Shown: positions 1-22,136 of the stretch, piece by piece
How positions within the stretch are numbered: position 1 is the stretch's first letter
Layout: each line of letters opens with the position of its first letter
Origin: an uncultured Bacilli bacterium
Lineage (GTDB): Bacteria; Bacillota_I; Bacilli_A; RF39; UBA660
Assembly: GCA_934155185.1 (NCBI GenBank)
Contig: CAKPGT010000002.1
Location: 6,887-38,886 of the forward strand
Direction of reading: 5' to 3'
Length of the DNA: 32,000 nt
The notes under the pieces: generated by a model
Told to the model about the DNA's origin: nothing
Databases searched by the model: none
What the model saw: the letters and a program-made list of their open reading frames with translations, nothing else
Made by a program: the position numbers and the translations under genes

Positions 1-460
1 AAATTTTTTAAAGTATTATTAAAATAAAAAAATTATAATGGTAATTACTACCGTATGCTGAAAATATATTTTAATAATTTTCATGTATAACCATTAATTT
101 TTTATGTGAAACTTGTTTTATTATAAAGGTGTTTAATATCAGATTATAAGAAGGTATATTATTTTAAAATTCAGTTAATATTTGATAAAATACATTTGAA
201 AAGTCATAATGCACATAAAATTAAAAAGCAGTTATTGTGTCACAAATATTGTGTAGATGCTACAAAAAGAATTTGTGACTAGATAATTATGTTAGAAAAA
301 TTGAAACTGCTTATGTGAAGTAATACTAGTGAAGTTGATAAACAAAGAAGTGCTGAAAAAGCATAGTCAACGAAACCTTTTGGATTTGATACAAAATTCA
401 TTATTTAAACTGAGCATTTTATGTTTGCTTTTATTAAAAATACTGTAGAATCTAAAAAGG

Positions 461-514
461 CTCAAAAAAAGAACTGCGAAAAATTACTTATTAAATTTTT
501 CACAGTTCTTTTAT
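461..514. terminator. Bidirectional rho-independent terminator downstream of agrD
   Basis: Arms 471-485 (GAACTGCGAAAAATT) and 494-508 (AATTTTTCACAGTTC) pair at 14 of 15 positions with an 8-nt loop. An A-run lies on the left and a T-run on the right, so either strand reads a hairpin followed by a U-tract. Confidence 0.7.
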
Positions 515-527
515 AATCTAAAATTTA

Positions 528-653
528 TTATCTTTCTATCATTGATTTTGGCATAGTAGGTTCATCTATGAATACTATTAAGCAACCACTTGTAGCACTA
601 GCAGCAACTAGAGCTCCTAATGCAGAAACAATTGAAACAAATAAAGCTTTCAT
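528..653 (-). CDS. agrD: AgrD-like autoinducing peptide precursor (41 aa)
   Basis: Not in the ORF track. Minus-strand ATG at 653-651, 10 nt after AAGGAGG (670-664); stop at 530-528. Translation is MKALFVSIVSALGALVAASATSGCLIVFIDEPTMPKSMIER: hydrophobic leader, a single Cys, then an acidic D-E-P and P-K tail typical of AgrD propeptides. Lies immediately downstream of agrB. Confidence 0.75.
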   Translation of the reverse strand: MKALFVSIVSALGALVAASATSGCLIVFIDEPTMPKSMIER

Positions 654-695
654 GTTTTTTAATCCTCCTTTACTATATTATTTAGACACCTATTT

Positions 696-1301
696 TTAAG
701 TGTTTAAACCATAATTTTTATAATTCATATAAGGTGTTTTAAATATTTTATAAGTTATGGGAATTATTAATAAACATTCAATTAGCAATCCTATTATTAG
801 GCTGTTTATTAATAAGTTATTTTTAATAAAGAATGATATTATGAAATATATTATAGTTACTGAAATAGATAGTGTTTTAAAAATTAATCTTTTCCTTTTT
901 TTTATTAGTGGTCTTTTTACTGTATCTGCAGGAGCATAAGCAGTAATTATTATTCCAGCTAGTATATAAAGAATATATAGTATTTCTCTTGGTATAGTAA
1001 CCACTTTACACAAATAAGCACATCCAAGGAATAGTATGCTGGAAGTAACTAAGCATATAGCACTATTAGGAGCATGCATTCCAAATGCAAACAGTCGTAT
1101 GAAATTAAATGCTAATAATAATATTAATAATTCTTTAAATATTCCTAGTATAAATGCTAATGTAAAAATAATAACTGCTTTAGTAATTGTTAGATATATC
1201 CCCTCAACTCCATACATTATTTCATCAAGCTTATCTTCAGAATATTTAGGATACTGATTTTTTATACTATCTCTTATTTTAGATAATATCAACTTTTTCA
1301 T
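696..1301 (-). CDS. agrB: AgrB-family accessory gene regulator protein B (AgrD-processing membrane peptidase)
   Basis: 201-aa polytopic membrane protein. The N-terminus (KYSEDKLDEIMYGVEGIYLTITK...) and the FNFIRLFAFGMHAP motif with conserved His match AgrB. agrD follows it. Confidence 0.88.
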   Translation of the reverse strand: MKKLILSKIRDSIKNQYPKYSEDKLDEIMYGVEGIYLTITKAVIIFTLAFILGIFKELLILLLAFNFIRLFAFGMHAPNSAICLVTSSILFLGCAYLCKVVTIPREILYILYILAGIIITAYAPADTVKRPLIKKRKRLIFKTLSISVTIIYFIISFFIKNNLLINSLIIGLLIECLLIIPITYKIFKTPYMNYKNYGLNT

Positions 1302-2490: not shown

Positions 2491-4986
2491 ATGTTAGGTA
2501 TTTTAAAGAAAATATTTGATAGTGAATATAAAGAATTAAAAAGATTTAGAATTATAGCTGATGAAGTTTTTTCACTTGATGAAAAATATAAGAAAATGAG
2601 CGATAAAAAACTTAAAGATACTACTAATGAATTAAAGAAAAGATTGGAAAACGGTGAAACACTAGATGATTTAATACCAGATGCGTTTGCTTTAGTAAGA
2701 GAAGCATCATTTCGTGTAATTGGTGAAAAACCATATTATGTTCAAGTATTAGGTGCACTAGCAATTCATTTTGGTAATATATCTGAAATGAAAACAGGTG
2801 AAGGTAAAACATTAACTTGTGTTATGCCTGCTTATTTAAATGCATTAACTGGTAAAGGTGTTCATGTTGTAACTGTTAATGAGTATCTAGCTGGACGTGA
2901 TGCAAACTGGATGGGTCAAATATTTGAATTTTTAGGTATGACTGTTGCAGTAAACTTAAGAGAAATGAGCCCAAAGGAAAAGAAAGAAGCATACTTATGT
3001 GATATTCTTTACTCAACAAATAATGAATTAGGCTTTGATTACTTAAGGGATAATATGGTTGTAAGAGCTGAAGATAGGGTACAAAGGCCGCTTAATTTTG
3101 CCATAATTGATGAGGTAGACTCAGTATTAATAGACGAGGCTAGAACTCCACTTATTATTTCTGGTGGTGTTATGAAGTCAGCTAATTTATATAAAGATGC
3201 AGATAGATTTGTAAAATCCCTAAAAGAAAATGAAGATTACACTATAGATGAGAAAACAAAAGACATTACTTTAACTGATGAGGGTACCGAAAAAGGGGAA
3301 AGATATTTTAGATTAGAAAATTTATATGATATTGAACACACTGCTTTAGTTCATCATATAAATCAGGCTTTAAAAGCAAACTATACTATGAAGAATGATG
3401 TTGATTACGTAGTTCAAGAAGGAAAAGTAGTAATAGTTGACCAATTTACTGGAAGACTTATGCCAGGACGTGCTTTTTCTGACGGACTTCATCAAGCAAT
3501 AGAAGCTAAAGAAAATGTTGAAATAGAAGAAGAAACAAAAACACTAGCTACTATAACATTTCAAAATTACTTTAGAATGTATGAAAAATTATCTGGTATG
3601 ACAGGAACTGCAAAAACAGAAGAAGAAGAATTTAGAAACATATATAACATGTTTGTTATTCAAATACCAACTAATTTACCAGTAATAAGAATAGATGCAG
3701 CTGATTTAATTTATTCTACTAAAGAAGAAAAATATAAAGCTATTATTAATGAAATTAAAAAAAGACATGAAACAGGTCAGCCAGTTTTAGTTGGCACTAT
3801 TGCTATAGAAACAAGTGAAATAGTAAGTGGACTTCTTAAAAAAGCTAAAATTAAGCATGAAATACTAAATGCTAAGAACCATGCAAGAGAAGCTGAAATT
3901 ATCGCAAAAGCAGGTGAAAAGGGTGCTGTTACAATTGCTACTAATATGGCTGGTCGTGGTACTGATATTAAATTAGGTGAAGGCGTTAAGGAACTTGGAG
4001 GTTTATGCGTAATTGGTACGGAAAGACATGAATCAAGACGTATCGATAATCAGTTAAGAGGACGTTCAGGACGTCAAGGAGATCCAGGATTTAGCCAATT
4101 CTTTGTATCGTTCGAAGATGATTTAATGGTTAGATTTGGAACAGATAGATTTAAATCAATACTTGAGATGGCTGGTTTAGATAGTGAAAGAAATATGCGT
4201 AGTAAGACAATTACTAGATCTGTTGAAACTGCTCAAAAAAGAGTAGAAGGTAATAACTTTGATGCTCGTAAACATTTATTACAATATGATGATGTAATGG
4301 GAAGACATCGTGAAATTATGTATGCTAAGAGAAATGAGATTTTAGATAAAGAAGACATACATGAAACAGTGATTAATACCATAAAGGAACATATAGAAGG
4401 TTTAATAAGAAGACACACCGACGAGCGTGGTGTAATAGTAGAAGATAATTGCGATGAAATTGTTGAATATGTTAATGAAAATTTATTAAGAAATTCTAAT
4501 CTAAAATTATCTGAAATATTAAATAAAGATATATCAGAAATAATAGATGTAATTGAAAATAAAGTAATTACTGAATATGAAAATAAGATAAAAGAATTAC
4601 CTGACGAGATTAGAAATGATTTTGAAAAAGCAATAAGCTTGCAAGTTATCGACCGTTACTGGATGGAACATATAAACACTATGGATCATTTAAGAGAAAG
4701 TGTTTCTCTAAGGGGTTATGCTAATGAAGACCCACTTCAAGCTTATGTAAGAGAAGGTTTTCAAATGTTTGACGCTATGCTAGATAGTATTAGCAAAGAT
4801 ATTACGTTATATTTACTAAAAGCAGAGATAAGACAGAATTTAGAAGTAAAGCAAGTTAAGGGAAGAACTAATGATTCAAAGGATGCTACGCCTAAAAAGA
4901 CTGTTAAAAATGGAAAAAAAGTGGGTCGTAATGATCCATGTCCTTGTGGCAGTGGCAAGAAGTATAAACAATGTTGTGGTAAATAG
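2491..4986 (+). CDS. secA: Preprotein translocase ATPase SecA
   Basis: 831 aa. Walker A MKTGEGKTL, DEAD-like DEVDSVLIDEARTPLIIS, TNMAGRGTDIKLG and the C-terminal SEC-C zinc motif CPCGSGKKYKQCCGK. Confidence 0.98.
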   Translation: MLGILKKIFDSEYKELKRFRIIADEVFSLDEKYKKMSDKKLKDTTNELKKRLENGETLDDLIPDAFALVREASFRVIGEKPYYVQVLGALAIHFGNISEMKTGEGKTLTCVMPAYLNALTGKGVHVVTVNEYLAGRDANWMGQIFEFLGMTVAVNLREMSPKEKKEAYLCDILYSTNNELGFDYLRDNMVVRAEDRVQRPLNFAIIDEVDSVLIDEARTPLIISGGVMKSANLYKDADRFVKSLKENEDYTIDEKTKDITLTDEGTEKGERYFRLENLYDIEHTALVHHINQALKANYTMKNDVDYVVQEGKVVIVDQFTGRLMPGRAFSDGLHQAIEAKENVEIEEETKTLATITFQNYFRMYEKLSGMTGTAKTEEEEFRNIYNMFVIQIPTNLPVIRIDAADLIYSTKEEKYKAIINEIKKRHETGQPVLVGTIAIETSEIVSGLLKKAKIKHEILNAKNHAREAEIIAKAGEKGAVTIATNMAGRGTDIKLGEGVKELGGLCVIGTERHESRRIDNQLRGRSGRQGDPGFSQFFVSFEDDLMVRFGTDRFKSILEMAGLDSERNMRSKTITRSVETAQKRVEGNNFDARKHLLQYDDVMGRHREIMYAKRNEILDKEDIHETVINTIKEHIEGLIRRHTDERGVIVEDNCDEIVEYVNENLLRNSNLKLSEILNKDISEIIDVIENKVITEYENKIKELPDEIRNDFEKAISLQVIDRYWMEHINTMDHLRESVSLRGYANEDPLQAYVREGFQMFDAMLDSISKDITLYLLKAEIRQNLEVKQVKGRTNDSKDATPKKTVKNGKKVGRNDPCPCGSGKKYKQCCGK
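4963..4986 (+). repeat. Direct repeat copy 1 (att-like core): the true 3' end of secA
   Basis: TATAAACAATGTTGTGGTAAATAG. The same 24 nt recur at 7465-7488 (1 mismatch) and 10241-10264 (identical, and the identity extends 3 nt further, CTT). Confidence 0.85.
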
Positions 4987-5037
4987 CTTGTTTTATAAGG
5001 GTTTGTGAGTTTGACAATAGTCAAAAAAGGCAAAAAA

Positions 5038-5110
5038 TTGTGCACATAACGCCATTTGTGCACAAATTAAAAAAATCCCCATATTATAAGGGAAAAATAT
5101 ATGTGCACAT
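5038..5110. repeat. Cluster of three TGTGCACA palindromic motifs (left arm of islet A)
   Basis: TTGTGCACA at 5038-5046 and 5056-5064, ATGTGCACAT at 5101-5110. The same motif recurs at 7291-7299. Confidence 0.6.
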
Positions 5111-5116
5111 TAATAG

Positions 5117-5149
5117 AAACTAGCGTTAAGCTAGTTTTTATTCTCTTTT
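5117..5149 (+). terminator. Hairpin and T-rich tract downstream of secA
   Basis: AAACTAGC / GCTAGTTT 8-bp stem with a 5-nt loop, then a T-rich run. A homologous hairpin sits at the equivalent place in islet B (about 7540-7566). Confidence 0.55.
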
Positions 5150-5174
5150 CTAAAGATTTTTAGAAGGAGGATTT

Positions 5175-5498
5175 ATGGCACAAGTACATGTGACAAAAAG
5201 AGGAAACCTATTTCAATATAGGTTTGAAATTGCTCCACAAGGTGGAACAAGAAAGTATATTAATAAGTCTGGATTTAAGACAAAGCAAGAAGCTTATGAA
5301 GCAGGAATGAAAGCGTATAACGAATATTTAAATGTTGGTCATTCTTTCAAACCTTCTACAATGTCATTTGCTGATTATTTAGATTATTGGATGAAAAATT
5401 ATTGTGGGGTTAATCTAAGGAATAATACAATGCAAGCATATATAAACATTATAAATAATTATCTAAAAATTAACATTAATTACATTCTAATGGAATAA
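5175..5498 (+). pseudogene. Tyrosine recombinase/integrase, N-terminal fragment only (arm-binding and start of SAM-like domain)
   Basis: 107 aa. KRGNLFQYRFEI...GFKTKQEAYEAG...FADYLDYWMKNY is typical of phage-integrase N-termini. No catalytic R-H-R-Y domain follows; the ORF stops where the cargo promoter begins. Confidence 0.72.
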
Positions 5499-5502
5499 GA
5501 TC

Positions 5503-5543
5503 CTAAGATTTATTCTTAGTCTTCATATAATTTATGATATAAT
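5503..5543 (+). promoter_or_regulatory. Inverted repeat and extended -10 promoter upstream of the WYL regulator
   Basis: CTAAGA-N5-TCTTAG at 5503-5519 overlaps the -35 position. TGATATAAT lies at 5535-5543, which places the transcript start after the track ATG at 5542. Confidence 0.45.
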
Positions 5544-5559
5544 GAACGTAGGTGGTTTT

Positions 5560-6162
5560 ATGTCTAAAGTTTCTAATGTTATAACTATGTTAGAGTTGCT
5601 ACAATCAGGAAGAAAATATAGTATTAATGAACTTTCTAATAAACTCGAAGTTTCAGAAAGAATGATTAGAGTATATAAAGAAGATTTGGAAAAATCTGGA
5701 ATATATATAGATACAATAATGGGTCCATATGGGGGTTATGTATTAAACCAATCGGTTCGTATGCCTATTAGAAAATTTAAAATGAAAGATGCAAAATTAT
5801 TAGATAAGTACATTGCAAATGAAAAAAATAAAGACATAAAAGAAGAACTTATATTACTTCAGGATAAAATTAAAGGTATATACATTGGAAGTAAGCAAGA
5901 AGAAAAAGAATTAAATTTAAAAGATGAAACCGGTAAGAAGTATAATTTATTAACAAGAGCTATAAAAGAAAAGAGAAAAGTTAAAATATTATATTATTCT
6001 TATGGTAAAGGTGAAAATGAAAGAATAATTGATCCAGCGGAAATGTTTTTATTTCAAGATGGTTGGTACTGCGCAGCTTTCTGTGAAAAGAAACAAGATA
6101 TTAGGCATTTTGAATTAAAAAGAATAATAAAGTACGAATTATTAAATGAAAAATATGAGTAG
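5560..6162 (+). CDS. HTH-WYL domain transcriptional regulator (short form, no WCX extension)
   Basis: N-terminal wHTH (ITMLELLQSGRKYSINELSNKLEVSERMIRVYKEDLEKSGIYIDTIMGPYGGYVL). C-terminal WYL domain (VKILYYSYGKGENERIIDPAEMFLFQDGWYCAAFCEKKQDIRHFELKRI). Start chosen at ATG 5560 after GGTGG; the track start 5542 lies inside the -10 box. Confidence 0.85.
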   Translation: MSKVSNVITMLELLQSGRKYSINELSNKLEVSERMIRVYKEDLEKSGIYIDTIMGPYGGYVLNQSVRMPIRKFKMKDAKLLDKYIANEKNKDIKEELILLQDKIKGIYIGSKQEEKELNLKDETGKKYNLLTRAIKEKRKVKILYYSYGKGENERIIDPAEMFLFQDGWYCAAFCEKKQDIRHFELKRIIKYELLNEKYE

Positions 6163-6213
6163 ACGAAATATTACCTCTTTTTGAGTTATATTGAACTTGA
6201 AAGGAGATTTTTT

Positions 6214-7137
6214 ATGGAAAAAAACATGAAAGTTAATTTTGATTTTTTAAAAGCAAGGGTGATAGATTCATTAGACAATACTGACTTAGAATTTATTAGA
6301 AATGAATTATCTAAATTAAGTGAACCAACATTATTTAGTGGTGTTGGAGGATCAAGTGTAGTTAGTGAATTTGGCGCTAAAGTTATTAATACTAAAAATG
6401 GTATAATTTCAGTAAATAGTGAACCAAGAGATTTTTTATACCGAAATAATGGTGTACTTAGAAATGTAGTAGCATGTAGTTATAGTGGAAATAATTATGG
6501 AGTAGAATTAGCCTTTTTAAAAGGCTTAAGAAAATACTTGTTATCAAACAATTCATTCGATGATAGTGATGTGACTTATTTAAAATATGGTACTACCATC
6601 GATAAAGAAAGAAGTTTTATATCACTTGGTGCAACATTGATTCCTATAAGTATATTAATGAACTATTATTTAGATGGAAAAAACAATCCAATGTTAGATT
6701 GCATAGGAGAATCATCGTTCAATTTTGATTTAGAAAGTGATGTCTATGAAATATTCAGTGGCTATGATACCAGTACCGCATCAAAGTACTTAGAATCTAC
6801 AATAGTTGAATCTGGTATTGGAATACCTATAGTTCATGATAAGTATTCTTATTGTCATGGAAGAAGTACACTTGGTATTAATTATAATGGTATAGCGATT
6901 TATTATAATAGGAATACTGAATTCGATCTAATGATATTGGAGGAACTTAAAAAGTATTATAGTATGATCATCATTATTGATTCTAAATTTAAAGATCAAA
7001 TACTAGATGATTTTCAGATGCTTATCCAAAGCATGTATCTAACAAAGTATATTGCAGAGAAAAAATTAAAAGATTTATCCAAAGTAGAATACTCACCGAT
7101 AGTAAAAAAATTGTATAAATATAGTGGACAAATTTAA
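6214..7137 (+). CDS. Hypothetical protein, possible degenerate double SIS-like (phosphosugar-binding Rossmannoid) fold
   Basis: Start ATG 6214, 7 nt after AAGGAG (6201-6206); the track start 6181 is TTG. Weak motif resemblance only: SGVGGSSVVSEFGAKV (G-x-G-x-S), ACSYSGNN (S-x-S-G) and YSYCHGRSTL (like K-H-G-P). No nuclease, ATPase, TIR or SIR2 motif is visible by eye. Confidence 0.65.
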   Translation: MEKNMKVNFDFLKARVIDSLDNTDLEFIRNELSKLSEPTLFSGVGGSSVVSEFGAKVINTKNGIISVNSEPRDFLYRNNGVLRNVVACSYSGNNYGVELAFLKGLRKYLLSNNSFDDSDVTYLKYGTTIDKERSFISLGATLIPISILMNYYLDGKNNPMLDCIGESSFNFDLESDVYEIFSGYDTSTASKYLESTIVESGIGIPIVHDKYSYCHGRSTLGINYNGIAIYYNRNTEFDLMILEELKKYYSMIIIIDSKFKDQILDDFQMLIQSMYLTKYIAEKKLKDLSKVEYSPIVKKLYKYSGQI

Positions 7138-7257
7138 GCACACTAATTTTTCTTTTTATGTTCAATTGCTTACTTTTTAAATTATAGTATAATTTATTTG
7201 GCAGTATATTTATAAATATACTATATTAAATAAAATTTTTAGGAAAGAAATTTATAT

Positions 7258-7310
7258 CTGCACACAACAGTTCCTATTAAAATGGGAACATTGTGCACAT
7301 TTTGTGCTCA
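7258..7310. repeat. TGTGCACA-type motifs and GTTCC/GGAAC inverted repeat (right arm of islet A)
   Basis: CTGCACACA at 7258-7266, GTTCC-N10-GGAAC at 7270-7289, TTGTGCACA at 7291-7299, and a degenerate TTTGTGCTCA at 7301-7310. Confidence 0.55.
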
Positions 7311-7464
7311 TTAACCTAAAAACATATAGTAAAAATAATACTATATGTACCATTTATACCGTATCTGTTTAGACCTTTTAAGCCTTGTAAAATCTATAAT
7401 ACTACATATATTTCATAGTGTTATATGTACAGGAAAAGGATGAACTTGTGGCTCAGGAAAAAAA

Positions 7465-7488
7465 TATAAACAATGCTGTGGTAAATAG
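7465..7488 (+). repeat. Direct repeat copy 2 (att-like core, secA 3' end copy)
   Basis: TATAAACAATGCTGTGGTAAATAG. The upstream frame reads C-G-S-G-K-K-Y-K-Q-C-C-G-K-stop but has a TGA 15 codons before the terminal TAG and no start codon, so it is not a gene. Confidence 0.85.
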
Positions 7489-7594
7489 TTTATAAAATAA
7501 GGAAAATAATTTACAAACATTTTTGAAAACATAAGAAATACTAGCGATTTGCTGGTATTTTTTCATTTGCTAAGTAATTAGTGGAGAAAAAAAT

Positions 7595-7867
7595 ATGAGA
7601 AATGTTTATGCGCAAAAAGAGGAAAGATATATCAATATCAATTTGCTATTGCATCTATTAATGGCAAAAGAAAAAAAGGTAAAAACAATTAAAACCAAAG
7701 CGGAGGCTATTGAGGCAGGAATAAAGACACTCAATGAATATATAAATGTTGGGCATTGTATGGAGTCAAGCAATGTGCCATATGGTGATTACTTAGATTA
7801 TTGGATAAAGGAACATTGTGAAATAAACTTAAAGTATCATACGATACAGACTTATAAAAAAAATTGA
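7595..7867 (+). pseudogene. Tyrosine integrase N-terminal fragment, frameshifted and truncated
   Basis: KAEAIEAGIKTLNEYINVGHCM...GDYLDYWIKEHCEINL parallels islet A (KQEAYEAGMKAYNEYLNVGHSF...ADYLDYWMKNYCGVNL). The AKRGKIYQYQFAIASINGKRKK segment homologous to TKRGNLFQYRFEIAPQGGTRKY is in another frame (about 7611-7676), with the shift back at a poly-A run. Confidence 0.7.
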
Positions 7868-8647
7868 TTTTGAAAGTGAAATAATTACAAAATATAAATA
7901 TGATAATGTTGGTAATATTGGTAACATGTTATACAAAAAAATTTATGTTCTTAATACGTATAACTTTATTACTAAAGATATATATATAATTATAATAATG
8001 AAAATAGGCAATATCAATTAACTAAATTTAACAATACTATTATTACTTATGATGAGATAGGTAATCCATTAACTATAGGGGATACAATCAACTTAACATG
8101 GATTAATGGTAGAGAACTGGAAACTTATAATGATGGTATTAACCTAATTTCATACAAATATAATTCTGATGGTATAAGAATAAGTAAAAAAGTAAATAAC
8201 AATGAAACGAAATATTACCTAGAGGATAATGACATAATATTTGAAAAAAAAGGTAATAATGTGTTATACTATTTACGTAATGATATAGATGATTTGTTTG
8301 GTTTTATGTATAATGATGATTTATATTATTATATAAAAAATAATACGAAAGATATTATAGGTATATTGGATAGTAGTCATAATATAGTTGCTAAATATAA
8401 ATATGATTCTTGGGGTAAAGTAATTTCTATAACAGATTGTAATGGTTATGATATATCAAATGATATTAATAATATAGCAAATATAAATCCATTTAGATAC
8501 AGGAGTTATTATTATGATTCAGAAACTAAATTATATTATTTGAATAGTAGATATTATAATCCAGAATGGAAAAGATTTATTAATCCGGATTCTTATGGGG
8601 AACAAATTGGTGGTAATATATTACTTCATAACATATATATTCTTTAA
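7868..8647 (+). pseudogene. Rhs/YD-repeat protein fragment (last YD repeats and Rhs-associated core), N-terminally truncated and frameshifted
   Basis: YD repeats: ITKYKYDNVGNI, ITYDEIGNPLTIGDTINLTWINGREL, YKYNSDGIRISK, YKYDSWGKV. Core end: FRYRSYYYDSETKLYYLNSRYYNPEWKRFINPDS...GGN. There is no upstream Rhs body; the fragment abuts the integrase fragment. A frame break occurs near 7975-7990. Confidence 0.8.
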
Positions 8648-9233
8648 ATAACCCTATTTTGTATAATGACGAAAGTGGTAATTTCCCAGGAGCTCTATCA
8701 TTAGCTACAGGTGTACTTTATGCTTTTGGGAAGGCTATGCTTAAGGCTGCTATATATGTAACTATTGGTGGTTTAGTTATAGGAGGATCTATTTCTGCTG
8801 GTAAAGCTATGGCAAATAGTAGAAGTAAATCAAAGACAAAAAAGAAAACGAAAAGTAAAACAAAAACAAAAACTGCTGTAGCTGCAAAAGTAAAAACTAG
8901 TACAAAAAATCTTCGTATAATAATAAACCATGTACAGAGGCCTATTTTACACAAGATATTAGAGATGTTGTACGCGGTGAAAGATTAACAATTGAAAAAA
9001 CAATTGCAAGAGTTAATGCTAAGGGAAATGTTATGTGTGACAGTTATTGGCCTGCCAAGAAAGTTGCTACTGATTTATCAACAAATCCAATGTGCGAAAT
9101 AAATAAAATTCAACGTAAAGGATATAAGTATTTCTATCATTTTCATCTAAATAGAGATACTTATAAGGATGTACATATATTCTTTGAAGGTGTACCATTA
9201 GATTTCTTTGAAGGAAAGGGGAATTGTAGATGA
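8647..9233 (+). pseudogene. Rhs C-terminal tip: junction motif, TM and K/T/S-rich linker, small toxin domain of unknown family (two frame breaks)
   Basis: NNPILYNDESGNF (degenerate N-P-x4-D-P-x-G junction) is read after a frame change in the (AT)4 run at 8633-8640. A second frame change lies between 8901 and 8988. The terminal domain reads ...RVNAKGNVMCDSYWPAKKVA...GYKYFYHFHLNRDTYKDVHIFFEG. Confidence 0.55.
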
Positions 9234-9958
9234 GAATAAGAGGTAAAGTGGATGGTGACTTATACAAGAAGTTAATGAGTTATATTGTTTCAAAAAGTGA
9301 TGTTTTGTCAGTATCAGTTAGACTTGATTATGATAGGAAAATTGCTAATAAAGTTATAAATATTATTATGTCTAGTAATGGATATACTGTTAATGATATT
9401 GTAAATAATTTTTCTAAAGAATATATAGAAAAAATAGCTGAAAAAAACAAGAAAAATAAATTAATTTTCGATGAAGAATATATTTGTAATGAAAAGCAAT
9501 GTGTAATAAAACATATTCAAAATTTTTCAGAGGAGTACAGGAAAAAACTTATATACGACAGAAGAAAAAATCATATAAAAAGTATAATTTATTGGATGGT
9601 TTATGAATATAAAACAACTAATTGGTTACACAAATTTAAAACCAATATCATTTATAAGTCGTGCAAGGATCCATCTTATACCACTTATTATCTTAATTTG
9701 ACAGTGGATTTAATAAACGATATTCTTAGTAGGAATTCATTTAATGATTGGAATTTTCCTTTTTCAGTCGAAGATATTGCACTTTTTAAAAATAAACAAT
9801 GTTTATTATGCTCTGAGACACATGAAAATGTATGGGATATATATTGCAAGGATGAAAATGAATATAAGTATTTTAAATCTATTGGTATTAAATTCAATGA
9901 CCCGAGATATATATTAGAAGGGAAAAAAGGATTACCTTACGATAATTATTATATCTAA
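9230..9958 (+). CDS. Putative cognate immunity protein (unknown family; paralogue at 22137-22784)
   Basis: ATGA start/stop overlap with the toxin tip ORF. No signal peptide or TM segment. The C-terminal FNDWNFPFSVEDIALF...YCKDENEYKYFKSIGIKFND matches FSDWKFPDSVENLFFY...FCKDEKEFRYLKSLGVRFND in the 22137 gene. Confidence 0.55.
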   Translation: MRIRGKVDGDLYKKLMSYIVSKSDVLSVSVRLDYDRKIANKVINIIMSSNGYTVNDIVNNFSKEYIEKIAEKNKKNKLIFDEEYICNEKQCVIKHIQNFSEEYRKKLIYDRRKNHIKSIIYWMVYEYKTTNWLHKFKTNIIYKSCKDPSYTTYYLNLTVDLINDILSRNSFNDWNFPFSVEDIALFKNKQCLLCSETHENVWDIYCKDENEYKYFKSIGIKFNDPRYILEGKKGLPYDNYYI

Positions 9959-10054
9959 TTATATTTCAGATTTGTTAGTTTTAGATTAATGCAAAAGATA
10001 TTTTGGTTTATTATCATTATGTCTTTTAATATTATTTGAGAAGGAGACTTTAAG

Positions 10055-10201
10055 ATAGATTTTATAGTAAAATATTGGATTAAAATACTATTAACATCCA
10101 TTACGTCAGGTATCTTGTATATTTTTAAACAATATATAGGATTAAAAAATGGAATGACCGCGCTTTTAAGAAATGAAATTATTAGAATATATGATAGGTA
10201 A
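10055..10201 (+). pseudogene. Small TM protein remnant, possibly phage holin-like (start codon lost)
   Basis: GAAGGAG followed by ATA instead of ATG. Reads IDFIVKYWIKILLTSITSGILYIFKQYIGLKNGMTALLRNEIIRIYDR: one TM helix followed by a G-x-x-ALLR-x-x-II-x-x-Y tail that I associate with small phage lysis-cassette proteins (from memory, unverified). Confidence 0.3.
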
Positions 10202-10240
10202 GAAGAGCTTGGGCTTTGTCCATGCGGTTCAGGATGTGAG

Positions 10241-10264
10241 TATAAACAATGTTGTGGTAAATAG
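10241..10264 (+). repeat. Direct repeat copy 3 (att-like core, secA 3' end copy)
   Basis: TATAAACAATGTTGTGGTAAATAG. The frame reads E-E-L-G-L-C-P-C-G-S-G-C-E-Y-K-Q-C-C-G-K-stop directly after an in-frame TAA (10199-10201) with no start codon. Confidence 0.85.
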
Positions 10265-10444
10265 CTTATAAAATAAGTAAATATTTAAGATCCAAAAATT
10301 ATTAAGTTGGTTCAGGTTTCAGAACTTATCTATAAAATAGTTAAAAATTGTTGTAAAATAAAGGCGTGAGCAAAAAATCATATGTTGACACCTTTTAAAA
10401 TTTAGTGGAAAATATGTACAATAAAGTTGTTACTAATTTTAAAA

Positions 10445-10595
10445 GATGTCTACTGAAAGATTAAAAGAATATATGATTAAAGATTTCACTATAGATGATG
10501 AAAGAATTAAAGCCAATGGTGGAGGTAATTGTTGGAAAGAATTGCTAGATAGAATTATTGATATAAGATCATTTGAAAAAGTATTATATAGGTAA
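10445..10595 (+). pseudogene. RhuM-family protein internal fragment, frameshifted
   Basis: MSTERLKEYMIKDFTIDDE, then a 1-nt shift in the A4 run at 10500-10503, then RIKANGGGNCWKELLDRIIDIRSFEKVLY. This resembles the RhuM core (L-K-E-x-L-x-K-G-F-x-x-D-D-E-R-L-K ... L-L-x-R-I-R-x-I-R-x-S-E-x-x-x-Y). Both protein ends are missing. Confidence 0.55.
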
Positions 10596-10733
10596 GCTTT
10601 TGATTTATACGTAAATATGAGTTACATACTGAGTAGTTTTGCGCTATATTTTCGTGAAACATTTTACTTTTTTCTCCAAAAATGGTATATTACTACTGCA
10701 GTAAATAAAATATCTATTTTTTAGGGGGAGAAT

Positions 10734-11723
10734 ATGGAAAAAGTAAAAGCTATGAGGTACTCAAATTTTAAAGAGGCAATTCATCCTTTATTATTAAGGG
10801 TTTTAACCGCTAAAGTAACAGGCAAATTAAATTTAGAAGGTAAATTTCCTAAAGATGGAAATTATTTAATTGTTGCAAACCATTTTTGTATTGAAGATAT
10901 TCCAACTTTAGGTCAAGCTGTAAATGAGCATTTTTACTTATTAGTTAGTGATGAAGATAAAAATACAATTGATGGTTTAGGCTTAACGCTAAATGGTACA
11001 GAATGGGTTCACAGATTAGATAAAAATAGTAGAAAGATTTCTAGTAATAATGCTGAAGCAATTTTAAAACAAAAAAAGAACTTTGCTATGTATCCAGAGG
11101 CTACTTGGAATTTATCGCCTAACTTACTTATGTTGCATATGAATTATGGATGTATTAGAATCGCTTTAAACTCTAATGTCCCAATCATTCCAGTTGTTAC
11201 ATTATTTAATAAAGAAAGTAGGCACACGATTATAGGCGAGCCTTTTTATCCAACCTCAAATTTAGTTGATTCTATAAATAAATTAAGAGATATTATGGCT
11301 TCTATGATATATGAGGAAATGCTTAAAGAAAATGAAATGGAATATAAAAAAGGAAATACAAATATACGTCATAAAGTAATAGATGGTAAAGATTATTACT
11401 ATGAAGAAAGAAAAACACTTGATTCAAATTATTGGAATAATAATATAGATTCAAGATATGAGGCTTATAAAAGAGCGCGAGAGGATAAAAGCGGAGTAAG
11501 GGAATTTGAATCACAATTTATCTTCACTCCAAAAACTGATGATTATAATTTCTTTCAAACATTTAACAGTGTGATAAGAAAAGATGGGGATAAAGTTTAT
11601 ATTAAAAGAATTTCATCTGAAAAAAATGGATACTACGAGCCTTTTACAAAGTATTCTGATTTTGATGAAATGTTTGGATATGGTTATAATGAAAAGGTTT
11701 TAAAAAACAATATAAGCAAATAA
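10734..11723 (+). CDS. Lysophospholipid/glycerolipid acyltransferase family protein (PlsC-like) with an uncharacterised C-terminal extension of about 130 aa
   Basis: H-x4-D motif in VANHFCIEDIP and a YPEATWN block (FPEGT-like). The C-terminal third has no motif I recognise. Confidence 0.7.
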   Translation: MEKVKAMRYSNFKEAIHPLLLRVLTAKVTGKLNLEGKFPKDGNYLIVANHFCIEDIPTLGQAVNEHFYLLVSDEDKNTIDGLGLTLNGTEWVHRLDKNSRKISSNNAEAILKQKKNFAMYPEATWNLSPNLLMLHMNYGCIRIALNSNVPIIPVVTLFNKESRHTIIGEPFYPTSNLVDSINKLRDIMASMIYEEMLKENEMEYKKGNTNIRHKVIDGKDYYYEERKTLDSNYWNNNIDSRYEAYKRAREDKSGVREFESQFIFTPKTDDYNFFQTFNSVIRKDGDKVYIKRISSEKNGYYEPFTKYSDFDEMFGYGYNEKVLKNNISK

Positions 11724-11797
11724 GGGTTATCGTTATTGATAACTTTTATTTTTTATGTTAATCTTATAGTAGTGTAGTAAATAGTAGTGGAGGAATT

Positions 11798-13600
11798 ATG
11801 AATCTTATTTTACCAACTTATTCTATATTTTTACTTATTATTTTAAATTTTGCTTTTTTTACCAAAAAAAGATTAAGAAGTGATGAAACAAAAACATACT
11901 CTATTCTTATAATTTTAAGTACTTTTAATATTATTTTTAATACAATTGGAATTTCATTAGGATATTTTGACGGCGTTTCTGATTTTTTATATGCTTTAAA
12001 TCATTTTGATTTACCACTTTACTTTTGGTGGTCTTCAATGATGTACGTATACTTATTGTATGTTTACATGAATACCGGTCAGAAAAGAAGATCATATTTT
12101 AAAATTAAAAAAATTATTTTAATCTTAAATATATTTATAACCATTTTAACGATTTTTTTACCATTTCAAATTGTTATAACGAAAAAAGCTGGTTATGCAA
12201 TCGGACCATGTGTAAATTTAGTATATTTAGTATCAGGAATTTACTTAGTACTATCCTTTATTACTTCTATTTTACTAATTACTAAAAAGCAGTTTAGAAA
12301 AATAATACCACTGTTTTCTTTGATAATTTTAGGCATGATAGCGACAGTAATTCAAAAGAGTATACCATCATTAATAATTATTCCATCAGTTGCAGTTTTA
12401 GTAGAGTTTATTATGTATTTTACAATAGAAAATCCGGATTTAAAAATGGTAAATGAATTATTAAGAAACAAGGAATTAGTTGAAAAACAGATGGAAGATA
12501 AATCTAGATTTTTATTTGAAGTAACTCAAGATATTAAAACTCCAACAAAAAATATTTTTACATTGTCAGACAATTTTGATGAATTCTATGAAAAAGATAA
12601 AAAGGATGCTATAAAAATTATTAGAAATAATGCAAATTCCGTATTATTTAAAATTAATAATATACTTGATATATCATCGATGGATGCTAGTAAAATAAAA
12701 ATATTTAATAATGAGTATAATGTTTATACTTTGTTTGAGACGGTAGAGAGTATTACAAAAAACTTAAATAAAAACAAAAATATAGATGTAAAATTTTTTA
12801 TAAACTCTAATATACCGACCATATTATATGGTGATGAAGTAAGACTAAAACAAATTTTAATATCGGTTTTGTCTAATAGTATAAGTAGTACTACAAAAGG
12901 ATTTATAATTGTAAGTGCTAGTGCAATAGTAAGATATGATGTTACAAGGCTGATTATAAAAATAGAAGATTCAGGATGTGGAATGAGTATAGATGAAGTA
13001 AACACTATTTTAGATGATAATAGAGAACTTACTAAGGAAGAAATACAAAAACTTGATGAACTTGATATGGATTTAGTAGCAACTATCAAATCAATAAAAT
13101 TATTGGGAGGGAGTTTTAATATAAGAAGTGAAGAAAATAAAGGCTCGACATTTACAATTGTAATAGATCAAAAGTGTAATATAGAAAAAAAATCAGATAT
13201 AATGCAGGATATTGAAAAATATTCATCAGATGTATTTGGAAGGAAAAGAGTACTTGTAGTTGATGATGATAAGGAAGAATTATTTAAAATTTCTGACATA
13301 TTATCAAATTATAACGTTGATATTAATACTACTATGTCTGGTAAAGACTGTGTATATAGAGTTCGAGCTGGAGAAATCTATAATTTAATAATAATAGATG
13401 ATGAACTTAAAAATGAGTCAGCATTAGGAACACTAGAAGAATTAACCAAAATTAAAAAGTTCAATTCTAAAGTTATTGTTATGTTGGCTAAAAATAAAGA
13501 ACATTTTAAAAAATATTACATAAAAGATGGGTTTACAGATGTAATATTAAAAGAAAATCTAATAGATGAATTAAAAGAAAAAGCAGACTTAAATTTATAA
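11798..13600 (+). CDS. Hybrid sensor histidine kinase-like protein (polytopic N-terminus, HisKA, HATPase_c, REC) with degenerate H-box
   Basis: About 6 N-terminal TM helices. The H-box KSRFLFEVTQDIKTPTKNI has Gln where the phospho-His is expected. N-box LKQILISVLSNS and G1 box IEDSGCGM are present; no clear G2 (G-x-G-L) box. The REC domain has VLVVDDD and LIIIDD. Confidence 0.8.
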   Translation: MNLILPTYSIFLLIILNFAFFTKKRLRSDETKTYSILIILSTFNIIFNTIGISLGYFDGVSDFLYALNHFDLPLYFWWSSMMYVYLLYVYMNTGQKRRSYFKIKKIILILNIFITILTIFLPFQIVITKKAGYAIGPCVNLVYLVSGIYLVLSFITSILLITKKQFRKIIPLFSLIILGMIATVIQKSIPSLIIIPSVAVLVEFIMYFTIENPDLKMVNELLRNKELVEKQMEDKSRFLFEVTQDIKTPTKNIFTLSDNFDEFYEKDKKDAIKIIRNNANSVLFKINNILDISSMDASKIKIFNNEYNVYTLFETVESITKNLNKNKNIDVKFFINSNIPTILYGDEVRLKQILISVLSNSISSTTKGFIIVSASAIVRYDVTRLIIKIEDSGCGMSIDEVNTILDDNRELTKEEIQKLDELDMDLVATIKSIKLLGGSFNIRSEENKGSTFTIVIDQKCNIEKKSDIMQDIEKYSSDVFGRKRVLVVDDDKEELFKISDILSNYNVDINTTMSGKDCVYRVRAGEIYNLIIIDDELKNESALGTLEELTKIKKFNSKVIVMLAKNKEHFKKYYIKDGFTDVILKENLIDELKEKADLNL

Positions 13601-13771
13601 AAATGCTTTAAATCACACGATATTTATGTTTATATTATAAGAACTCAAAAAGCGCATATAGGTGAAAAAGAATATCTTGCAGCTTTTTTATGTAATTACT
13701 TTAATTTAGTTTATGGCTAGGTGAAATATAAAGATATTAAAATTTTAGAAAGTGATGAAAAGAGGAATATA

Positions 13772-14254
13772 ATGAAAGATATTAAATTAAAAGATGAAAA
13801 TGGAAAATTTAGATTAAGAGTAAGTGGGATGCTAATAAAAAATAATAAACTTCTAGTACATGAGACACAAAAATTTAAAGGATATTGTTTGCCAGGCGGA
13901 CATGTTGAAGTAGGTGAAAGTACAAAGCAGGCTATATTAAGAGAAATGAAAGAAGAATTAAATATAGATGTAGAAATAATTGATTTATTTTGTATTAATG
14001 AAAATATATATAATGTTGATGAGACAACTAGTCAAGAAATCAATTATTATTATAATTTAAAATGTTTAACTCCTTTATCTGATGCACCTTTTTCTGTTAA
14101 GGAAATAGATAAAGGTATAGAAAAAGAACATAAATTTGATTGGATAGATATTAGTGAGTTATGTGATAAAAATTTTAAACCAGATCATATGGCAAAAATA
14201 ATTATGGAAAATACTGAGACTAAAAATAATGTAGTTTTATCCGATAATAGATAA
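13772..14254 (+). CDS. NUDIX hydrolase
   Basis: Nudix box GGHVEVGESTKQAILREMKEELNI. Start ATG 13772 after AAGAGG; the track start 13721 is GTG. Confidence 0.85.
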   Translation: MKDIKLKDENGKFRLRVSGMLIKNNKLLVHETQKFKGYCLPGGHVEVGESTKQAILREMKEELNIDVEIIDLFCINENIYNVDETTSQEINYYYNLKCLTPLSDAPFSVKEIDKGIEKEHKFDWIDISELCDKNFKPDHMAKIIMENTETKNNVVLSDNR

Positions 14255-14511
14255 TATGAAATATGTGGTATATTATTTTTAATAACGTCTCTTAGTAGTA
14301 CTAAGAGAAGCTAACTGAAAAACTATTAAAAATTTTGATTAAATAAGAAAAAAGAAAAACAATATAGTAAAATCATTGAAAAATAGAAATAAAACAAGTG
14401 ATAGTGCATAAAACATTGTATATTACCAGTGACTCAGAGAACTATTATTACGAAAATAATAATAAATACTATATTATATGTTATAATTAGCTTGTTTGAG
14501 TGAGGTAGTAT

Positions 14512-16299
14512 ATGGAAAAAGTAAAGTTAGAGCAAAAAGAATCAAAAACACCCAATAGAAGTGTTTGGAAAAATTTAAAAGCAACTTATAAATATGCTAA
14601 GAACGGTAAAAAATATTTAATATTATTCTTAGTAGGAAACATAATAATGACTATTATTTCAATTATTATACCTATCATTATTGCAAAGAGATTAGTATTA
14701 TTAACAAGCGGATTATTTCAGAAACTTTTGGGACTTGTAGTTTTAGTATTTGTTATAGAAATATTAAGAAACATAACTAGATATTTTTCAGTACATTCAT
14801 ATCATAAGTTTTATTATGATGTACGCCAAAATTTACAATTGGAACTAACGAGGGAAACATTAAAGATATCACAAAAGGATTTAAATACTAATTCTACAGG
14901 AATATTTATTGAAAGGATTAATAATGATACTGACAATTTAACTGATATTTTTGCAAATTTGATTGATTATATAACAAATATAATTGGTAGTTTAGGTATC
15001 TTAATAAGTATCTTTTTCATTAATATATATTTAGGTTTTTCTTATGTTTTATTAATTATAGTTATAGTTTTATATAATAAATTTGCAAGTAATATAAATT
15101 ACAAAAAAAGAAAAGAATGGAAAAAAAGCAGAGAAAAAACAGGTGGCTTTATTTCTGAAATTGTAAGAGGTGCTAAAGATATTAAAATATTAGATGCTGA
15201 AGAATCTTTTTTAAGTAAAGCCAATCTTTATATGGAAGAAACTAATGATATTTCCCGAAAATACCAACACTCTAGATTAATTTTACGATTGGCTGGAGGT
15301 TCTTTAAGAGATGTCTGTGATTTATTAATAAGCCTATTAACTTGTTTCTTTCTTATTTATAACTTATTATCTATAGAATTAGCATTAATAATTATGAATT
15401 ACCATTATAGAATTGTAGATACGGCTGATTGGATAGAACAGATATTTGAAATATTAAAACAATTTAATTTAGCTGCTAATCGTATTTTTGGTATATTAGA
15501 AGAAGGAGAATTTGAAAAAGAACACTTTGGTACACAAAAGCTTGAAAAATTTGAAGGAAATATTGAGTTTAAAAATGTTTGCTTTGAGTATGAAGAAAAT
15601 ATACCAATCATAAAAAATATGAATTTTAAAATAAATGCTAATGAAACCATTGGTTTTGTAGGACCATCTGGAGCAGGTAAAACAACTATTTTTAATTTAA
15701 TAAGCGCTCTAGAACTTGTTAACAAAGGAAGTATTGAATTTGATGGTATAGATATTAGTAAATTAGACAAATCAAGCATTCGTGGTAATTTGTCAGTAAT
15801 TAGTCAGAGTGCCTATATTTTTAATATGAGCATAATGGATAACTTAAAAGTGATAAAACAAAATGCTACAGAAAAAGAGATTAAAGAGGTTTGCCGCTTA
15901 GCGTGTCTAGATGAATTTATAGAAAGCTTGCCAAACAAATATAATACAATTGTTGGCGAAGGCGGAGTAACTTTATCAGGCGGTCAAAGGCAAAGATTAG
16001 CTATTGCTAGAGCCTTATTATTAAAAACTGAAATATTGCTTTTTGATGAAGCTACAAGTGCTTTAGATAATGAAACACAAACAAAAATTCAAGAAGCTAT
16101 TAGCAACTTAAAAGGTGAATATACGATTTTAATTATTGCTCATAGACTGTCAACTGTTATTGATGCGGATAGAATATTTGTTGTTAATGATGGTAAAATA
16201 GAAGCTTCTGGCAATCATAAAGAACTGTTAAAAAGTAGCAAAACATACAAAAAATTGTATGAAAAAGATATAAATGAAAATAATAAAATAAATATATAA
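14512..16299 (+). CDS. ABC exporter, fused permease/ATPase (type I, MsbA/LmrA-like)
   Basis: N-terminal 6-TM domain. Walker A GPSGAGKTT, signature LSGGQRQR, Walker B ILLFDEATSALD, H-loop IIAHR. Confidence 0.9.
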   Translation: MEKVKLEQKESKTPNRSVWKNLKATYKYAKNGKKYLILFLVGNIIMTIISIIIPIIIAKRLVLLTSGLFQKLLGLVVLVFVIEILRNITRYFSVHSYHKFYYDVRQNLQLELTRETLKISQKDLNTNSTGIFIERINNDTDNLTDIFANLIDYITNIIGSLGILISIFFINIYLGFSYVLLIIVIVLYNKFASNINYKKRKEWKKSREKTGGFISEIVRGAKDIKILDAEESFLSKANLYMEETNDISRKYQHSRLILRLAGGSLRDVCDLLISLLTCFFLIYNLLSIELALIIMNYHYRIVDTADWIEQIFEILKQFNLAANRIFGILEEGEFEKEHFGTQKLEKFEGNIEFKNVCFEYEENIPIIKNMNFKINANETIGFVGPSGAGKTTIFNLISALELVNKGSIEFDGIDISKLDKSSIRGNLSVISQSAYIFNMSIMDNLKVIKQNATEKEIKEVCRLACLDEFIESLPNKYNTIVGEGGVTLSGGQRQRLAIARALLLKTEILLFDEATSALDNETQTKIQEAISNLKGEYTILIIAHRLSTVIDADRIFVVNDGKIEASGNHKELLKSSKTYKKLYEKDINENNKINI

Positions 16300-16374
16300 C
16301 TAATCTATTTAATGATTTAAAATATTACTTAAAATGCTTTATTATTAGCTGCATAACTAGGAGGAATAAATGAC

Positions 16375-17182
16375 ATGAACTATATAATATGGGTTATAAT
16401 TTACTTAGTATTTGCAGTATTATTTGCTCAAGAATTTAAAAAAGTAAATAAAAACTCAAAAAACATATCAGCATTAACAGTCTTGTTAGAATTGATGAAC
16501 GGCTATCTTTGCACTTCTATTATCACCACTATTTAAATATAAATTCTCTACTAACATATATACATATGCCATAATATTCGTTGTTACTATACTGTATGCA
16601 TTCACTGATAGACTTAATATAGAAGCAAGGTATGGTCTTAATCCATCTGTTTTTAGTATGCTTAAACAATTATCAACAGTATTTATGGTTATTTTTGGGT
16701 TAGTATTCTTAAAAGAAAAATGGGTATTTAAAAAAATAATAGGTGCTATCTTGATATTATTTTCTAATATAATGCTATCAATAAATAAGGATGGAAAGTT
16801 TGAATTTAATAAATATTTTATAATGTCATTCATATCAAACTTTCTTTTTGCTGTTGCTATGCTTATAAATGTTAATATATCTAATGAATTTAATATAGGA
16901 ATCTATACGTTTTTAACAGTATTTGTTCCAGCAATGTTTATAAAGATAGGGACAAAACTTACTACAAAAGATCTTATTAATGAATTTAAAATTTATGATA
17001 AAAAAAGATTTTTATTAGTAGGATTTTCATGGTGTGTTATGCTTATATCATCTGTTAAGGCTTATGAATATGGAAGCATATCAGTTGTTGCACCCTTACT
17101 AACTTTGACCAGTATTTTAAATTCATTTTATGAATATTTCTTAGATAAAAACAAAAAAGATTTAATTTATAAACTAAAATAA
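16375..17182 (+). pseudogene. EamA/DMT-family transporter, interrupted by a frameshift near 16490-16500
   Basis: ATG 16375 after GGAGG gives MNYIIWVIIYLVFAVLFAQEF...ALTVLLELM and then stops. The next frame continues from 16499 as TAIFALLLSPLFKYKF...SMLKQLSTVFMVIFGLVFLKEKW into the track ORF 16658-17182. Together they would give about 269 aa of polytopic membrane protein. Confidence 0.6.
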
Positions 17183-22116: not shown

Positions 22117-22136
22117 TATTTTTGGAGGTAAGTTAT

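Follow-up and report, generated by a model that had tools for sequence, protein, structure and literature searches.

The 3' end of secA as a very probable attachment site of stacked and decaying tyrosine-integrase elements in uncultured gut Bacilli

In streptococci, tandem accretion of integrated elements, together with cis-mobilizable elements (CIMEs) and microCIMEs, was described at the 3' ends of fda, rpsI, rpmG, rplL and the tRNA-Lys gene for ICESt1, ICESt3 and related integrative and mobilizable elements (PMC5704250, PMC7563491). According to a published rule for such arrays, decay is most advanced in the elements at the greatest distance from the target gene (PMC7563491). Protein-coding genes contain 43.4% of the islands in the TIGER collection (PMC12424338). 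Here we describe an array of repeat-bounded units at the 3' end of secA in a 32,000-nt stretch of DNA (further referred to as the window) from an uncultured Bacilli bacterium (contig CAKPGT010000002.1 of the GenBank assembly GCA_934155185.1, positions 6,887 to 38,886). The last 42 nt of secA, which encode the zinc-binding tail CGSGKKYKQCCGK-stop, are very probably the attachment (att) site of tyrosine-integrase elements that stack and decay there. An initial annotation of this DNA held that secA is not commonly cited as an integration target; in agreement with this, our literature searches turned up no paper in which secA is given as an attachment site, an earlier listing in the TIGER island tables being possible.

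The locus shares with the streptococcal CIMEs a tyrosine integrase targeting the 3' end of a conserved gene, restoration of that end, and direct att repeats bounding the units. The units are likewise stacked in tandem, their integrase genes (in streptococci also transfer genes) are lost and the att sites remain, the worst decay is found furthest out, and gene-free mini units exist (here, in the related contig L100). In contrast to the streptococcal systems, the target is secA, which appears in none of those papers, the hosts are uncultured gut and rumen Bacilli, and the window integrase is located at the secA-proximal end and reads inward.

The secA gene (2491–4986, plus strand) is intact and encodes an 831-aa protein with the Pfam domains SecA_DEAD, SecA_PP_bind, P-loop_SecA, SecA_SW and, scoring at residues 813–831, SEC-C. 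The initial annotation reported three copies of a 24-nt core, TATAAACAATG(T/C)TGTGGTAAATAG, derived from the end of this gene. The copies are indeed found on the plus strand at 4963–4986, 7465–7488 (one mismatch) and 10241–10264, and dinucleotide-preserving shuffles of the window gave zero matches to the core. The repeat is real, but the 24 nt are too short a description of it. The similarity spans 63 nt at 73–78% identity, and reading the repeat against relatives delimits a 42-nt block from TGTGG to TAG, corresponding to the last 14 codons (CGSGKKYKQCCGK-stop), with about 14 conserved nt of the form CTTATAAAATAAGG after the stop. In these terms, copy 1 (4945–4986, attL-type) is the functional end of secA, while copy 2 (7447–7488) and copy 3 (10223–10264), both on the plus strand, are orphan secA ends, copy 2 being located between the two islets described below. 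Copy 2 reads G-K-G-stop-T-CGSGKKYKQCCGK-stop and copy 3 reads R-stop-EELGLCPCGSGCEYKQCCGK-stop, the CPC codons being kept in the latter too. The in-frame stops are located two codons (TGA, copy 2) and eight codons (copy 3) before the first cysteine codon, and the short frames that follow them have no start codon. Hence only copy 1 belongs to an intact gene, as had been claimed. No fourth copy was found in the window, including the region 10.3–17.3 kb, even with 7 mismatches allowed or in a search for the peptide motif.

A metagenome scan with the exact core yielded 74 contigs containing 117 copies of the repeat. Thirty-three copies lie on secA genes 46–73% identical to that of the window, and 82 are orphans, all of which part from secA exactly at the TGTGG edge. 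Two pairs of contigs capture the insertion itself. On the right side of the repeat L002 and L004 are nearly the same, with 5 mismatches in 10,612 nt, and they part 2 nt left of TGTGG; beyond this breakpoint, L002 continues as secA, whereas L004 contains an element with a PemK toxin gene, an excisionase-like gene and a gene for an intact 426-aa integrase. The same pattern is observed for L009 and L011 from another species, in which SecA ends with KNCCGRNQ and it is that ending that is repeated downstream instead. Contig L132 presents a clean 8.3-kb element: secA, the repeat, the gene of an intact 423-aa integrase with all three domains, restriction-modification genes, a helix-turn-helix (HTH) regulator gene, the repeat, and prfB. 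Overall, intact integrases of 423–437 aa are encoded directly after secA (at 110–240 nt) in L115, L119, L127, L132 and L166.

The secA and prfB genes are separated by 0.3–0.9 kb, with the secA end occurring once, in most of the sampled Bacillota genomes where prfB was found downstream; therefore, uninterrupted secA-prfB junctions exist. In the clade of the window, uncultured gut Bacilli with SecA proteins 64–74% identical, the gap ranges from 3.6 kb to more than 10 kb, and in the window it is 12.3 kb (from the secA end at 4986 to the prfB start at 17322). The proposal of site-specific integration into the 3' end of secA is thus supported by intact integrases after secA and by insertion polymorphisms at the repeat edge. 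The comparison with empty sites, set beforehand as a possible refutation of this proposal, turned up the short junctions elsewhere in Bacillota, and the suggested search for full-length integrases beside secA returned them in the secA-prfB interval of related contigs, in some directly after secA. Considered as a genomic island, the locus has direct att repeats, an integrase next to att and a restored full-length SecA; an insertion breakpoint exactly at att is seen in relatives only (L002/L004 and L009/L011), plus, for islet 1, in the comparison of contig L167 with the window.

The following mechanism would account for such a locus. The elements would use tyrosine integrases of the kind seen here, which carry an N-terminal arm-binding domain, and each element would bring its own copy of the 42-nt segment. 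Recombination within the segment would join the element-borne copy to secA and push the previous copy downstream as an orphan. Since the element would bring a copy of the last 14 codons, secA would stay intact and SecA would keep its zinc-binding tail. New arrivals would use the copy attached to secA, and so the elements would stack with the oldest furthest from secA; later, deletions would remove the integrase genes. We infer both the recombination by these integrases and the order of arrival from the sequences. Mapping of the flanks showed that positions 28–42 of the repeat follow the right flank, while positions 6–27 follow neither flank consistently. As positions 28–42 always go with the right flank, no less than the last five codons and the stop come from the right-hand element. 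Thus the initial suggestion that the element provides a replacement gene end agrees with the behavior of the final 15 nt of the repeat or more. A separate observation concerns contig L013, where an orphan copy (14175–14345) retains 57 codons of the SecA C-terminus (53% identity), 14 being the norm; in some events a longer stretch of secA may be displaced or carried along.

Islet 1 (4987–7446) is the unit adjacent to secA, and all its features are on the plus strand. Its left arm (P', 4987–5174) contains three TGTGCAC(A) sites (5036–5049, 5054–5066 and 5098–5112) and a terminator-like hairpin (5112–5142), and the segment 4987–5064 is 90–94% identical to the DNA directly after secA in L013 and L014. 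The arm is followed, 189 nt after copy 1, by int1 (5175–5498), an in-frame 107-aa N-terminal fragment of a tyrosine integrase matching the Pfam families PF14657 (Arm-DNA-bind_4) and PF14659 (Phage_int_SAM_3). The cargo comprises a gene for an HTH-WYL regulator (5542–6162; Pfam WYL 6e-18 and HTH_11, PADLOC WYL 6e-29) and a gene for a 318-aa protein of unknown function (6181–7137), which is always paired with the WYL gene and has no significant match in Pfam, NCBIfam, PADLOC, PHROGs or PDB sequences. The right arm (P, 7282–7446) carries a tandem pair, ATTGTGCACAT and TTTGTGCTCAT, at 7290–7311. It is 97% identical to L148 1291–1454, 84% to L014 and 77% to L002 15453–15581, and about 73–76% identical to the spacer after the intact integrase gene of L137. 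The two arms have four 9-mers in common. TGTGCAC has 8 strand-matches in the window compared to 1.2 expected, all of them inside the arms of islet 1: all four TGTGCAC sites of the 32 kb lie in these two arms, the right-arm pair being in tandem.

Islet 1 was found again in contig L167, with 97.6% identity over 4941–7487, exactly from repeat to repeat and with different DNA on both sides. The initial annotation considered the cargo to be fixed. This holds in that neither islet can excise by itself, but fails in that islet 1 keeps matched arm motifs and recurs in L167. These matched motifs and the recurrence between different neighbors suggest that rearrangement of the repeat array continues, and a related integrase supplied in trans could plausibly move islet 1. 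Two further observations were made for this islet. In L168, from another sample, the repeat is separated from int1 by a transposase-like gene (1–1176, minus strand; at least 392 aa, incomplete at the contig end), and the contig is homologous to the window from 5115 onward. The HTH-WYL gene and a gene of a family-less protein of about 310 aa co-occur in four loci (window 5542–7137, L148 10017–11592, L013 17288–18859, L167 1181–2758), the identity to the window WYL protein and 318-aa protein being 80% and 66% in L148, 45% and 32% in L013, and about 99% at the DNA level in L167; the pair may be a two-gene accessory or defense module.

Islet 2 (7489–10222), also read on the plus strand throughout, starts with a left arm (P', 7489–7594) showing 73% identity to the DNA that precedes the integrase gene in L107 and L012. 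It contains a terminator-like hairpin (7533–7563, z = −4.8) homologous to that of islet 1 (z = −3.8); both have a 13-bp stem followed by a T run and probably terminate transcription of secA before the own genes of the element. The integrase pseudogene int2 (7595–7867) begins 107 nt after copy 2. It has two compensating frameshifts, is cut after approximately residue 89 and yields only a weak Pfam match to Phage_int_SAM_3; its arm-binding motif AKRGKIYQYQFAIASINGKRKKG is in the frame starting at 7597 and not in the ATG frame. The cargo includes an N-terminally truncated Rhs C-terminal toxin-tip fragment (8003–8647; NCBIfam Rhs_assc_core 1.7e-12), whose frame is open from about 8003 and has YD-type repeats inside, and three open reading frames (ORFs) of unknown function at 8659–9958 (8659–8988, 9033–9233 and 9230–9958) without a significant family match. 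The 242-aa protein of this islet has no match in the five collections that were searched with the 318-aa protein of islet 1. The last of these ORFs (9230–9958) has a paralogue in the window at 22122–22784, far outside the secA-prfB interval (34% identity over 22161–22760). No motif is common to the arms of islet 2. A holin fragment at 10055–10201, upstream of copy 3, which would have suggested the right end of a prophage, was considered and dropped, since it had no Pfam or PHROGs match.

Copy 3 is followed by the left end of a third element (10265–10609, plus strand), which has decayed further than the two islets. This region contains a 49-aa fragment of a RhuM gene (10446–10595; Pfam Virulence_RhuM 5e-13, profile positions 48–96 of 252) and is 78–86% identical to the stretch formed by att, arm and RhuM in L041, L156 and L011. 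Since a RhuM gene or its fragment follows a repeat in these three contigs as well (full length in L011), copy 3 is also the left end of this third element, for which no right-hand repeat is seen. Both this remnant and the frameshifts in int2 had been overlooked in the initial annotation. That annotation had correctly noted a homologous hairpin and integrase fragment after each of copies 1 and 2, the loss of the catalytic domain by both integrases, and two tandem events. Indeed, when three integrase catalytic domains were used as tblastn queries, no part of the window proved to encode such a domain, and int1 and int2 are only 54% identical over 56 aa, so that they are separate arrivals and not a duplication.

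The int1 fragment keeps the arm-binding domain and part of the SAM-like domain, and its DNA homology to full-length genes ends at 5468. It is 68% identical to P0010 and 61% identical to the intact 426-aa integrase of L004. Two integrase lineages are present at the secA end in relatives. In lineage 1, to which int1 and int2 belong, the gene starts 110–240 nt after a repeat. In lineage 2 the proteins are 424–426 aa long and the gene ends about 300 nt before a repeat (L004, L137); in L004 and L008, where the gene before it is annotated, this neighbor is a paired HTH_17 excisionase-like gene. The N-terminal domains of the two lineages are 53–61% identical and the catalytic domains are 35–37% identical. 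Both lineages match integrase families (phrog_1), and for the sole integrase tested, that of L132, the best solved match is Tn1549 Int (6emy, 1e-11). Contig L008 has Mob_Pre, an excisionase-like gene and an integrase gene at a related locus. A database search with the int1 protein returned 52 homologues, all 58–184 aa long, though full-length relatives exist in the fetched contigs; the genes may have been truncated independently many times, or the word-based search may be limited in this respect.

The integrase pseudogenes show that the window islets descend from an integrase-bearing element. Between 4987 and 10222 there is no relaxase gene, coupling-protein gene or integrase catalytic domain, and the islets contain no traces of conjugation or mobilization genes; their parents may have been integrase-only islands such as that of L132. 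In structure, being att-flanked and without working integrase or transfer genes, the islets correspond to the definition of CIMEs. Decay increases with the distance from secA: islet 1 has an in-frame integrase fragment and matched arms, islet 2 a frameshifted one and unmatched arms, and the third element is a gene scrap. This order fits the published rule and was counted in favor of accretion (PMC7563491).

Several observations weigh against simple stacking and decay. The flank mapping gave no single strand-exchange point, and the two integrase types may cut at different places. For the species of the window neither an excised circle nor an empty site was seen, all evidence of activity coming from relatives. 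Islet 1 could itself be a hybrid, given that its right arm resembles the spacer after the other integrase type in L002 and L137, and islet 2 may be a fusion of two elements and not a single one, given that its arms have no motif in common. Finally, the region 10.7–17.2 kb may be either native or imported.

The units bounded by repeats in relatives allow for another reading. Two or more copies occur in 33 of the 74 contigs, with a median spacing of about 1.5 kb. The bounded units have a median length of 1.3 kb and contain 1–3 ORFs, nearly all on the secA strand, with a constant gap of about 140–200 nt between the last ORF and the repeat. The cargo varies widely, its 63 ORFs falling into 54 families. 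Many arms (L093–L166) contain a tandem pair of an 11–12-nt motif of the TTTTAGATAC type (e.g. L096 9422–12856, L146 1564–3722, L156 544–5536) at fixed distances from the repeat, −132/−120 on the left side and +78/+89 on the right side. The variants of the motif are equal at both ends of one unit and differ from those of the neighboring unit. Over 56 units, the mean number of common 9-mers was 5.59 between the arms of one unit, versus 1.26 across a repeat and 1.27 for random pairs. Such matching within units and the fixed-distance layout are expected of arm-type integrase binding sites, and the motifs are interpreted here as putative sites of this type. In 47 of the 56 units no trace of either integrase type was found, and 39 of these 47 keep matched arms; the gene-free unit of L100 is 215 nt long.

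These features could be explained if the secA end were a platform for gene capture, a gene-cassette system and not a graveyard. Integrase-less units with complete, unit-specific pairs of arm sites would then be the normal mobile form, captured and shuffled at the secA end by a few integrases acting in trans and encoded next to secA or by visiting elements. The process would resemble the shuffling of integron cassettes, except that the sites would be double-stranded copies of a gene end, and int1-type truncations with only the arm-binding domain left would serve as its regulators. We regard this as unlikely. The abundance of integrase-less units with matched arms, their compactness and diverse cargo, the fixed-distance tandems, the intact integrases often encoded directly after secA, and the short length of all 52 database homologues of int1 (at most 184 aa) speak for it. 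However, the islets of the window carry integrase pseudogenes and hence decayed from self-sufficient elements. Moreover, att-bounded integrase-less units, even gene-free ones of 130–220 bp, are already known as CIMEs and microCIMEs (PMC7563491). The ratio of nonsynonymous to synonymous substitution rates in int1 (window versus L167 and L168) is 0.26–0.40, which proves nothing, as it is based on 11–13 differences, too few to decide; the protein search was word-limited and missed known full-length relatives; and no movement of a single unit has been observed.

We also considered that the tandem structure could be an artefact of metagenome assembly, strains or species having been joined at the repeat. 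The window does originate from a gut metagenome contig (ERZ27287456 k141_225109), and the repeat is common to several species. On the other hand, the repeat, 24 nt when exact and 42 nt when mismatches are allowed, is far below the k-mer of 141, and the identical SecA is found in an unchanged context on three contigs. Independent assemblies reproduce islet 1 (L167), the junction of int1 with the WYL gene (L168), and copy 3 with its right flank (L151, 99.3% identity). Repeats shorter than the k-mer and recurring junctions make misassembly very improbable. Least credible of all is that copies 2 and 3 are C-termini of unrelated small SEC-C genes or relics of a local duplication of the secA end formed without a mobile element: SEC-C tails do occur on unrelated proteins, such as a phage ORF in MT835470.1, but the upstream in-frame stops, the lack of start codons, the identity of the core even at synonymous sites (24/24 and 23/24 positions), the integrase fragments after copies 1 and 2, and the relatives with intact integrases and insertion polymorphisms at the same spot all contradict it.

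Accretion and decay of integrase-bearing elements being the preferred reading, the locus may be compared with other site-specific systems. The domain order of the integrases (arm-binding, SAM-like core-binding, catalytic; PF14657, PF14659, PF00589) is that of lambda Int and of the Tn916 and Tn1549 integrases, and the short direct repeats at fixed distances on both sides of the core are similar to lambda-type arm sites, presumed here to bind the integrase. Unlike in these systems, the identity to any characterized integrase is low and the arm-motif variants differ between neighboring units. The short, mostly single-gene units in one orientation, with a conserved end site, diverse cargo and mostly no recombinase, recall integron cassette arrays. 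However, the integrases are not IntI-like, IntI4 being a weaker match than Tn1549 Int or XerD, and the sites are copies of a conserved gene end with arm repeats rather than folded attC palindromes. There is also no attI, Pc or divergent intI platform, and several units carry their own integrase. The array is thus no integron on two counts, the kind of integrase and the kind of site. Islands in guaA and in tRNA and tmRNA genes (SaPIbov1, the Islander and TIGER collections) similarly target a conserved 3' end, leave the displaced end as a direct repeat and form arrays at the site; they differ from the secA elements in the target gene and in the integrase lineage.

Tandem accretion and decay are already known; new are the target gene secA, the integrase lineages and the rich set of integrase-less units. 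The mechanism is a textbook one, and the surprise lies in the target gene, the spread of the site and the arm architecture kept by integrase-less units. The 3' end of secA, an essential and widely conserved gene, can be added to the gene ends at which mobile elements land, and the secA-prfB interval emerges as a hotspot of accessory genes in poorly known gut and rumen Bacilli. The 42-nt site with its orphans provides a simple marker of islands for fragmented metagenome assemblies, and integrases recognizing a site present in many Bacillota could serve genome engineering of uncultured-type hosts. Cargo at the secA end elsewhere includes restriction-modification genes, Abi and OLD-like ATPases, an extra methionyl-tRNA synthetase and an ABC-F protein, which suggests that the site matters for phage defense and possibly for drug tolerance. 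Genes of the latter two types can confer drug tolerance in other bacteria. Both were observed as single-gene units: the second methionyl-tRNA synthetase at L096 11012–12646 (Pfam tRNA-synt_1g 7e-131), and a 533-aa ATP-binding cassette (ABC) ATPase, ABC-F-like by sequence, at L094 2149–3750, the same as L161 1255–2856 (Pfam ABC_tran 8e-47).

A phage origin of the array was rejected. The tested cargo ORFs had no PHROGs phage-function match, and the phage DNA search produced no relevant match, only trivial ones. One of these, GenBank OR846975.1 (L169), labeled "Listeria phage LM 4-11-1" and flagged UNVERIFIED_ORG, is bacterial DNA, a fragment covering hpf, secA and prfB with no interruption between the latter two; a second "Listeria phage" record, OR848568.1, is similar to it, and the third match is the unrelated phage ORF with a SEC-C tail.

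The rest of the secA-prfB interval of the window (10734–17182, plus strand) encodes, according to Pfam, an acyltransferase, a hybrid histidine kinase, a NUDIX hydrolase, an ABC exporter and an EamA fragment; the ABC exporter gene has a 78% identical counterpart in the same interval of L041. The prfB gene (17322–18419, plus strand; Pfam PCRF and RF-1) contains the programmed +1 frameshift site GGAGGTCTCTTTGAC at 17376–17390 (GGAGG TCT CTT TGA C); hence the organism keeps autoregulation of release factor 2 and reads UGA as a stop. Upstream of secA the window contains an agr-type locus, a cold-shock gene and hpf. The agr-type quorum-sensing locus (window 279–1301 on the minus strand; L001 4927–8251) is located just before hpf and secA and consists of AgrB (696–1301) and neighboring ORFs of 40–41 aa, with a LytTR regulator and a kinase encoded further upstream.

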